Origin: Alphaproteobacteria bacterium
Lineage (GTDB): Bacteria > Pseudomonadota > Alphaproteobacteria > UBA6615
DNA: 64,000 nucleotides
NCBI GenBank assembly: GCA_965261975.1
Contig: CBDHEC010000003.1
Span: 32,001 to 96,000, forward strand
Direction of reading: 5' to 3'
Numbering within the stretch: position 1 is the first letter of the stretch; every line of letters begins with the position of its first letter. Shown piece after piece: positions 6,086-6,734 of the stretch. Under the pieces are notes generated by a model. It made no database searches. It had not been told where the DNA came from and saw only the letters and a program-made list of their open reading frames with translations. The position numbers were made by a program, and so were the translations under genes.

Positions 6086-6259
6086 TCAGGACCGGTTGAT
6101 GTCTTCGACCTGGGGACCACGCGAGAGGGGGAGAGTCCCGATGGTGCCGACTGTACCCGGCCCAGATGTCGGCCCTGCCGGGCGATCGAGCGCCTCGTCC
6201 GAGAGGTCGTCGCCGTCGAATTCTGGCTTCACATCCGATTTGGAAATACTTGAGGTCAT
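6086..6259 (-). CDS. Putative RiPP precursor-like peptide B2 (57 aa)
   Basis: Not in the ORF track (<60 aa). MTSSISKSDVKPEFDGDDLSDEALDRPAGPTSGPGTVGTIGTLPLSRGPQVEDINRS*, with upstream AAGGAAAGG. Clear paralog of 6406-6591. Confidence 0.75.
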   Translation of the reverse strand: MTSSISKSDVKPEFDGDDLSDEALDRPAGPTSGPGTVGTIGTLPLSRGPQVEDINRS

Positions 6260-6261
6260 GA

Positions 6262-6381
6262 CTAGAGCCTTTCCTTGGGGTTCGCGTTTGGACAGGCTGA
6301 GCCGGCGCAGGCGGCGGAACCTTTGATGGTAAAGCCGGCCGTTGAGTTAAACGTCCCGCTTCCAACCTTAGAACCGGCGGC
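6262..6381 (-). pseudogene. Leaderless remnant of precursor-like peptide A2
   Basis: AAGSKVGSGTFNSTAGFTIKGSAACAGSACPNANPKERL*, preceded by an in-frame TAA and with no start codon. Its beginning aligns with A1 ([10 protein letters not shown]), and it ends stop-TC-ATG like A1. Confidence 0.55.
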
Positions 6382-6405
6382 TTAGCCGCCGACTGAGAAA
6401 GCGCG

Positions 6406-6591
6406 TCAGGACTGGGTGATCGTCTCGGACTTTGCACCGGCTGTGCCGATGATAGACCCGATGCAGCCGGTGGCAGACCCGATGGCGGTACCCAACGTGC
6501 CGGGCCCGGCGGAAGGCCCCACGGGGCGATCGAGGGCTTCATCCGACAGTTCGTCGCCGTCGAACTCCAGTTTCGTACTACTTGTGCTCAT
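6406..6591 (-). CDS. Putative RiPP precursor-like peptide B1 (61 aa)
   Basis: MSTSSTKLEFDGDELSDEALDRPVGPSAGPGTLGTAIGSATGCIGSIIGTAGAKSETITQS*, with purine-rich GGGAGAAAAGGG upstream. Confidence 0.75.
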   Translation of the reverse strand: MSTSSTKLEFDGDELSDEALDRPVGPSAGPGTLGTAIGSATGCIGSIIGTAGAKSETITQS

Positions 6592-6593
6592 GA

Positions 6594-6734
6594 TCATCCC
6601 TTTTCTCCCGTCTCCACATTCGAGCCTGCGGTACCGATACACTGCCCGGCGGTGCCGAAGCAGGGAATCCCGGTTCCGCTTCCAACCGTAGCGCCGGCGG
6701 ACAGGCCGGGGCGGTCGAGCGCCTCGTCGGTGAG
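6594..6734 (-). pseudogene. 5'-truncated precursor-like peptide A1
   Basis: ...[46 protein letters not shown]. Upstream of 6734 the frame is antisense katG, with a stop at 6810-6812 and no start codon in between. Confidence 0.7.

Follow-up and report, generated by a model that had tools for sequence, protein, structure and literature searches.

A probable orphan array of precursor-peptide genes with a cyanobactin-like leader beside tRNA-Val in an alphaproteobacterium

We analysed a 64,000-nucleotide (nt) stretch of an alphaproteobacterial genome assembly (hereafter the window; GCA_965261975.1, contig CBDHEC010000003.1, positions 32,001 to 96,000 of the forward strand), in which an array of short reading frames lies on the minus strand between a tRNA-Val(cac) gene and a GST gene. 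We consider it probable that the four copies in this array, designated B2, A2, B1 and A1, together with two paralogues on contig C8, are precursor-peptide genes of an uncharacterised alphaproteobacterial family that is akin in logic and leader motif to the cyanobactin precursors, with cognate enzymes encoded in other genomes and the genes orphaned here. Taken alone, the window is a modest result, namely four orphan precursor genes, two of them intact and two broken, at a hot spot beside a tRNA gene.

Array genes and coding evidence

An earlier note on this DNA, made from its letters and a list of open reading frames (ORFs), had described an array of three L[ST]DEALDRP-type genes resembling precursors of RiPPs, peptides that are made by ribosomes and modified after their translation. 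The three minus-strand frames are indeed found beside tRNA-Val in both the sequence and the ORF list, but the array is composed differently: B1 and B2 are intact, A1 is truncated at its 5' end and owes the 'LT' of its motif to katG, and a fourth copy, A2, has to be added, so that the count becomes two intact and two broken copies.

B2 (6086-6259, minus strand) is an intact precursor-like ORF of 57 amino acids (aa) that begins with ATG, appears in the ORF list and matches a hidden Markov model (HMM) of the leader with an E-value of 2.7e-15; its 27-aa acidic leader ends in DLSDEALDRP and is followed by a 30-aa core that is rich in Gly, Thr and Pro and has no Cys. B1 (6406-6591, minus strand, ATG at 6591, leader HMM E 1.6e-12) is likewise an intact precursor-like ORF and encodes 61 aa, with a 23-aa leader ending in ELSDEALDRP and a 38-aa core rich in Gly, Ser, Thr and Ala that contains one Cys; an alternative ATG at 6597 overlaps the TGA of A1. 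Purine-rich ribosome-binding sites of the AGGA/GGGA type lie 6-10 nt 5' of both genes. A1 (6594-6728, minus strand, leader HMM E 0.009) retains just DEALDRP and a 37-aa core with two Cys, and has no start codon. A2 (~6262-6391, minus strand) is a degenerate A-type core copy with its leader deleted, recognised from the unit alignment and from direct repeat D3 (6353-6380 and 6673-6700, 86%); it aligns with the A1 core and carries an in-frame TAA, which leaves ~39 codons open. The locus as a whole is a tandem duplication of a ~335-nt unit (76% identity, 6406-6740 aligned against 6086-6405), and within each unit an A-type core precedes a B-type gene. Compared with B1, B2 has many substitutions, and an in-frame gap of 24 nt separates the two.

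Across 17 leader codons, B1 and B2 show 8.0 synonymous and 2.0 non-synonymous differences (proportion of synonymous differences, pS, 0.71; of non-synonymous differences, pN, 0.05), which bears out the earlier proposal that the leader motif is under coding selection, and across the last 18 core codons pS is 0.30 and pN is 0.45. Judged from these codon comparisons, the leader is under purifying selection and the core tail is not, as in a conserved leader joined to a free or diversifying core, a pattern that speaks against a non-coding repeat. The notion that the frames are untranslated and resemble one another as copies of a non-coding or mobile DNA element is hardly credible to us: no RNA run contains the locus, family copies are scattered like small mobile cassettes, and those of genome G036 form 750-base-pair (bp) tandem units on an integrase island, but these points are outweighed by the synonymous excess in the leader, the conservation of start codons and ribosome-binding sites, and a set of 1176 proteins conserved at the protein level across DNA that can no longer be aligned.

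A search of all 69,298 six-frame ORFs of the 3.03-Mb genome with the leader HMM, a check that the earlier note had recommended, returned only five matches (B1, B2, A1 and the two C8 peptides), four of them at E <= 1.6e-12, with A1 at 0.009 and the next match at 0.95. The C8 paralogues (G000:C8 1579-1953, minus strand) comprise 50 aa with a 3-Cys core and 38 aa with a 1-Cys core, and lie in a convergent gap between ftsK on one side and, on the other, a weak, sub-threshold FlgN-like ORF that follows flgI and rod-binding genes. The genome therefore carries four intact ORFs at two loci, all with start codons and ribosome-binding sites, and none of 11 same-genus genomes contains a leader match. It had been expected that standard gene callers would miss most of these ORFs, an expectation not upheld: the public protein collection contains B2 (as P0002) and both C8 peptides as called genes, with B1 absent.

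The leader family and its enzymes in other genomes

A word-indexed protein search with the four peptides of this genome as queries returned only the queries themselves, and a six-frame search of 60 relatives added one further carrier, G036. A leader-only profile run over a class sample of 401 genomes matched in nine, and the matches were real in G400 (16 matches), G274 (4), G177 (1) and the genome studied here (G000); those of the other five lay inside long unrelated ORFs and were rejected. Thirty-one small ORFs in 8 loci of three other genomes share one architecture, in which an acidic leader ending in ELSDEALDR is followed by T, A or P and then by a hypervariable, Cys-rich core of ~20 aa. 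Searching proteins with an 18-sequence alignment yielded 1176 matches at E <= 0.01 among 4917 candidates, all of them unnamed or 'hypothetical' and none with a Pfam domain. This agrees with the earlier claim that the peptides occur in many copies whose leader is conserved and whose core is hypervariable, as is typical of RiPP precursors.

An exhaustive search of 50%-identity representatives gave 112 matches at E <= 0.001. Among them are ORFs of 131-460 aa that contain 4 to 11 copies of the DEALDRP motif, with a different core behind every copy; P0126, a 723-aa match, was set aside as an unrelated repeat protein. The 113 single-unit cores obtained from the best 119 matches have a median length of 21 aa and a median of 3 Cys, with at least two Cys in 101. 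Some genomes hold at least 30 precursor copies, and in the two most copy-rich genomes the peptide genes stand singly or in small arrays among housekeeping genes (ccmH, parC, cobT, meaB, dsbD and aminotransferases). A 364-aa ORF between two peptides of G177 was discarded as an Arg-rich wrong-frame reading of a repeated element. When the leader profile was compared with the PDB, it found no solved precursor chain and only a chance match to purothionin (E 2.6).

The multi-unit proteins P0123, P0124, P0125 and P0128 are single ORFs of 256-460 aa with 5-11 matched DEALDRP-plus-core units, and have in common their N-terminus (MNAINT...) and a C-terminal tail ending in ...RLAA or ...RKAA; three of the four are encoded on one 7.6-Mb contig.

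Screening a single genome of each species with a degenerate DNA pattern that encodes ELSDEALDR gave at least 118 stretches, listed as 80 loci, about 30 of which hold small-ORF family members, the others being chance matches within long ORFs. Clustering the flanking ORFs of the real loci revealed a recurrent neighbour, a protein of 766-784 aa with winged-helix and Pfam YcaO domains whose full-length matches in the PDB are the heterocyclases TruD (4bs9, E 9.9e-142), LynD (4v1t, 8.2e-141) and MusD (7u58, 4.3e-133). Family peptides lie within 10 kb of this heterocyclase in seven genomes (loci L070, L084, L107, L093, L209, L210 and L191, the last in G036). A protein with ThcOx cyanobactin-oxidase and nitroreductase domains adjoins the heterocyclase in L093, L209, L070, L084, L107, L210 and L190, and an M1 aminopeptidase is also among the heterocyclase neighbours, as is an ABC-transporter ATPase in one case. 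A DUF697-like protein of ~170-215 aa is found in or beside the arrays of six genomes (L091, L093, L099, L107, L133 and L191), and might serve the system in immunity or export. Where azoline or lanthionine chemistry had been suggested, the azoline part thus gains support from a TruD/LynD-like YcaO protein, mostly with a ThcOx-like oxidase, nearby in seven other genomes, and the lanthionine part finds none.

In two of these loci the heterocyclase does not read full-length. L191 (G036:C6, ~8679-14300), from a genome of the same taxonomic family as ours, has a TruD-like heterocyclase in three frames, with two frame changes, next to multi-core precursors, which consist of near-identical repeats of one SDEALDPAPAQEA-plus-core unit, and to three tandem DUF697-like genes. 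L190 (G400:C26, 1-4800) retains only the last 210 residues of a TruD-like protein beside an intact ThcOx-like oxidase, with an antitoxin-like ORF, a ParE-like ORF and phage structural genes next in line.

Structure prediction of B1 with the L084 heterocyclase gave a score of 0.51, versus 0.00 for the best of three controls (partner pLDDT, the predicted local distance difference test, at least 43; contact agreement at least 47%; our own alignments). In calibration, 58 of 80 solved complexes attained this mark, as did 2 of 110 mismatched pairs, and scores that passed the mark at 0.60 or below came from 7 of the 80 solved complexes and from both mismatches. The predicted complex weakly supports a pairing of B1 with the enzyme, and since a similar LynD-substrate complex has been solved, the pass may reflect memory or likeness.

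The heterocyclase neighbourhood invites comparison with the cyanobactins. In the passages of PMC5460452 and PMC4558948 that describe cyanobactin precursor leaders, the LAELSEE motif is highly conserved, and according to the relevant parts of a 2015 review (PMC4663559) the heterocyclase is guided by recognition sequence RSI, a precursor can carry one to four cores, and cyanobactin clusters were known at that date only from cyanobacteria. Many family members read LAELSDE or VAELSDE in the same place relative to the core as the LAELSEE of those passages, and B1 (DELSDEA) and B2 (DDLSDEA) also come close to it, a near-match that was judged by eye and carries no statistic. Accordingly, the earlier failure to place these peptides in a named family holds as far as Pfam and NCBIfam models go, but they can be placed by the resemblance of their leader to LAELSEE.

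The likeness extends to the hypervariable cores, to the presence of several cores per ORF in some family precursors, and to the enzyme found in other carriers, a full-length TruD/LynD homologue with a ThcOx-domain oxidase beside it. The differences are equally plain: the hosts of the family are Alphaproteobacteria, no PatA/PatG or PatF-like genes were seen at the family loci examined, multi-unit ORFs repeat the recognition motif before every core, the loci have DUF697-like and M1-peptidase neighbours, the precursors often number dozens per genome and lie distant from enzymes, and the curated cyanobactin precursor models do not match. A PatD/TruD-type heterocyclase beside the precursor, present in seven other carriers, is absent in this genome. 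The literature yielded a 7-residue form of the cyanobactin motif and not a 9-residue form, and for the family's own motifs it returned unrelated locus tags only. In a search of open papers, neither this leader family nor such alphaproteobacterial clusters turned out to be described; a prior description is possible, and the clusters may already figure in genome-mining surveys of YcaO enzymes.

We propose that the acidic leader segment (xxELSDEALD) would dock on the N-terminal winged-helix recognition domain of the fused E1-like/YcaO heterocyclase of TruD/LynD type, which, by homology to TruD and LynD, would cyclodehydrate core Cys, and possibly Ser and Thr, to azolines in an ATP-dependent reaction. 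The neighbouring ThcOx-like oxidase, dependent on flavin mononucleotide (FMN), would turn the azolines into azoles, and a putative protease, for which the neighbouring M1 aminopeptidase is a candidate, would remove the leader at or near D-R|P. The products would probably be linear azole peptides and not macrocycles, since no PatA/PatG-type proteases were seen in the flanking ORFs scanned: Pfam found no subtilisin domain in 27 flanking ORFs of L084, L091, L093, L099, L133, L209 and L210 (8-20 kb per locus). Among the linear azole peptides, the family would then most likely form a cyanobactin-like branch that lacks the proteases.

In linear azol(in)e-containing peptides such as microcin B17 and plantazolicin, YcaO enzymes form azolines, an FMN-dependent enzyme oxidises them, and the product is linear after leader removal. 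The family resembles these in having a YcaO protein and an FMN oxidase beside its members elsewhere, both of which are absent here, with the chemistry being a prediction, and in the Gly- and Ser/Thr/Cys-rich cores of B1 and A1. It differs from them in that its heterocyclase is of the fused cyanobactin type and not a separate E1-like/YcaO/dehydrogenase complex, in its cyanobactin-like leader motif, and in that most of its cores are short (median 21 aa) and Cys-rich. The prochlorosins, in which a single enzyme (ProcM) acts with lanthionine chemistry on many scattered hypervariable precursors, share with the family the presence of tens of precursor genes in a small marine genome, a conserved leader, a hypervariable core and genes scattered away from the enzyme, whereas leader type and chemistry differ.

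Missing enzymes and alternative readings

The genome studied here holds substrates without enzymes, which the earlier note had not foreseen. In its assembly (94.6% complete, 59 contigs) there is no Pfam match to YcaO, no TruD-like heterocyclase (best tblastn E 3.6), no ThcOx-like oxidase (best E 0.30) and no DUF697-like match; the tabulation of neighbouring genes that had been recommended thus finds YcaO and ThcOx proteins in other carriers and neither in this genome. These absences count against our reading of the array as part of a heterocyclase-served precursor family, and they do not stand alone. The cores of B1 and B2 are atypical, with 38 and 30 aa and one and no Cys against family medians of 21 aa and 3 Cys. 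Comparison of 14 family peptides with the precursor models of Pfam and NCBIfam, another check that had been advised, gave no match to a curated model at E <= 10, the sole model match being that of B1 to RiPP_TigB, discussed below, and when B1 was used to confirm the 89 ELSDEALDR stretches matched in species genomes, not one passed tblastn at 1e-3. A promoter and terminator scan of the locus brought out nothing beyond one promoter-like site within B1, and no RNA run contains the array stretch, X1 being the sole run that does.

The enzyme association has limits of its own. The seven genomes with adjacent heterocyclase are partly close kin, several of them Reyranella-labelled metagenome-assembled genomes (MAGs), and do not represent seven independent events. 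Among 14 peptide-bearing genomes checked, the heterocyclase is full-length in 7, in three frames in 1, a fragment in 1 and missing in 5; carriers without it include this genome, G274, G177 and G437, and G400, with its fragment only, has at least 30 intact precursor genes. Conversely, in six genomes of the 401-genome class sample that do have a TruD-like gene of full length, this leader is absent within ~9 kb. Finally, no PatA/PatG-like protease that could account for leader removal was seen at the loci examined.

We read the locus as a partly decayed array of orphan precursors that was acquired at a hot spot beside a tRNA gene, or as one whose enzymes were not binned, because the partner genes are absent, two of the four copies are broken, and the B1 and B2 cores are long and Cys-poor. 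In this genome as assembled, the precursors are probably not matured. The second option, in which the precursors work in this organism and its genes for heterocyclase, oxidase and partners are missing from the bin or assembly, is possible but distinctly the less likely. The four intact ORFs at two loci, with their start codons and ribosome-binding sites, the strong purifying selection on the leader, an assembly that is just 94.6% complete, and the TruD-like gene beside multi-core precursors in G036 all fit it. However, half of the window copies are broken, carriers that are 96-100% complete also have no enzyme (G274, G177) or a truncated one (G400), so that loss seems common, and the selection signal may predate transfer into the lineage, given that the array is absent from 11 same-genus genomes.

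Other enzyme classes fared less well as partners. A LanC-like domain (PF05147) was found in none of five carriers, yet in none of 14 control genomes either, so that the controls are silent and the absence carries no weight. C39 peptidases occur in two of the five carriers, with a marginal match in this genome (22.6 bits); SPASM domains occur in three, and the two most precursor-rich genomes have 5-6 SPASM genes each. Multinuclear non-haem iron-dependent oxidative enzymes (MNIO; MbnB/TglH/ChrH, PF05114) were found in none of the five, with a positive control in Caulobacter. None of the four tracks the family. The sole radical S-adenosylmethionine (radical-SAM)/SPASM gene of this genome (G000:C56:109794-110834, plus strand) encodes a CxxxCxxC motif near the N-terminus and has weak NCBIfam matches only (DynA, AhbD); it was dismissed as partner, being off-locus and without a match at E <= 0.001 in four other carriers, and the flanks of the array contain no radical-SAM gene.

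These results bear on the suggestion that another enzyme class reads the same leader, for example a radical-SAM enzyme that would modify the Ile/Val-Gly-Ser/Thr repeats in B1, in the manner of the TigB-type cyclopropylglycine peptides. The B1 core does match the NCBIfam model RiPP_TigB (NF047709, E 7.7e-4), and both the single uncharacterised radical-SAM/SPASM gene of this genome and the SPASM genes of the two most precursor-rich genomes could be enlisted for it. The match, however, reaches 19.4 bits against a cutoff of 70 on low-complexity sequence, the candidate gene sits on a different contig and lacks matches at E <= 0.001 in the four other carriers tested, two carriers show no SPASM match, and no radical-SAM gene was seen adjoining any array examined. 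We therefore judge it very unlikely, and the radical-SAM modification that had been envisaged for these peptides is not borne out.

Slightly less improbable, if still far from favoured, is a role for the peptides in unmodified form, for instance as small secreted or regulatory peptides whose acidic N-terminal part is a pro-region or export signal. Many carriers retain dozens of intact copies without an intact heterocyclase, the copies lie among housekeeping genes and not in clusters, and C39-peptidase ABC exporters are present in two carriers. Such exporters are nevertheless absent from three of the five carriers tested, the match in this genome is the marginal one of 22.6 bits, the leader has no Gly-Gly site, and the repeated adjacency of heterocyclase and oxidase, together with a motif before every core of the multi-unit ORFs, fits enzyme recognition better. 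Precursors of a heterocyclase-served family, orphaned in this genome, are thus our preferred interpretation.

Insertion site and spread of the family

The tRNA-Val(cac) gene (5952-6026, plus strand, identified with ARAGORN) bounds the array on the left, and what adjoins its 3' side varies within the genus. All relatives match the window through tRNA-Val and then diverge at ~6033-6037; positions 6038-6728 have no match in 11 same-genus genomes. In place of the array, G004 has a different spacer of 490 bp, G011 a different one of 1.06 kb with a long open reading frame, and G010 yet another arrangement. Because the relatives diverge there and differ among themselves, the tRNA-Val side is a variable site into which the ~690-bp peptide array was inserted; no att-like repeat of tRNA-Val was found within 6 kb.

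The right border is a katG (catalase-peroxidase) remnant (6735-6935, plus strand) consisting of the last 66 codons (NCBIfam TIGR00198, E 6.6e-33, profile positions 650-713 of 716), beyond which lies the GST gene (6946-7632; Pfam GST_N/GST_C). G010, the closest same-genus genome, with flanks 88-93% identical, has an intact 753-aa katG adjoining the same GST, and its homology on the katG side begins at window position 6729, within the LTDEALDRP read earlier as the A1 motif, which makes the 'LT' antisense of the katG remnant. Since katG is reduced to its end and the 5' part of A1 is gone, a deletion took ~2 kb of katG and cut the 5' end of A1. The tandem duplication has also diverged, with one copy (A2) losing its leader. 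G004 retains an even shorter katG end adjoining tRNA-Val.

Run X1 was also assembled independently, and a 9774-nt contig of that assembly matches window positions 6001-7000 with 0 differences, indicating that the array and its junctions are not a bin-assembly chimera, with the proviso that X1 may be the source sample. The RNA runs contain small shares of the stretch, and the one compared in detail, X17, covers only the conserved katG end, with 7 differences, and its reads are thus attributed to another organism.

A more speculative proposal, which we think doubtful, is that the ELSDEALDR-leader peptides are a self-spreading family of hypervariable cassettes that lives on, its leader still selected, in genomes from which the heterocyclase has been lost. 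Such persistence would imply a second leader-reading partner or a heterocyclase-independent role, and the peptides may serve as a 'library' matured by enzymes supplied in trans or on mobile islands.

If our preferred interpretation of heterocyclase-served precursors holds, free-living Alphaproteobacteria contain a large branch of cyanobactin-type heterocyclase chemistry that has gone unannotated, with hundreds to thousands of natural core sequences, up to 11 cores per ORF and dozens of precursor genes per genome, and this branch would offer a natural library for an enzyme class already in use in peptide engineering. The leader motif provides a simple annotation handle for small genes that have no curated Pfam or NCBIfam model, and the frequent separation of precursors from enzymes raises the question of how RiPP precursor genes spread and survive without maturases.

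On another contig of G036, locus L008 (G036:C5, 129-8384) is an 8.1-kb island flanked by two identical copies of tRNA-Pro(cgg), and contains a tyrosine integrase, a Proteo-phage-1 RNA, four tandem units of ~750 bp, a reverse transcriptase (PF00078) and a 374-aa protein without family. Each unit holds a leader-like FDVDGLSDEALD frame, and the units are 97-100% identical outside a ~100-nt core-coding part, which is 77-82% identical and also has indels and irregular stops. A reverse transcriptase beside units that vary chiefly in the core part hints at a dedicated diversification or mobility mechanism.

Among viral contigs, four pattern matches resolved into one family member, two in an unrelated ORF and one without an ORF match. 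The member, at locus L237 (IMG/VR contig, 76-101, plus strand), is of the Reyranella-like leader type and lies at the beginning of a contig of 5.8 kb that is classified as viral.

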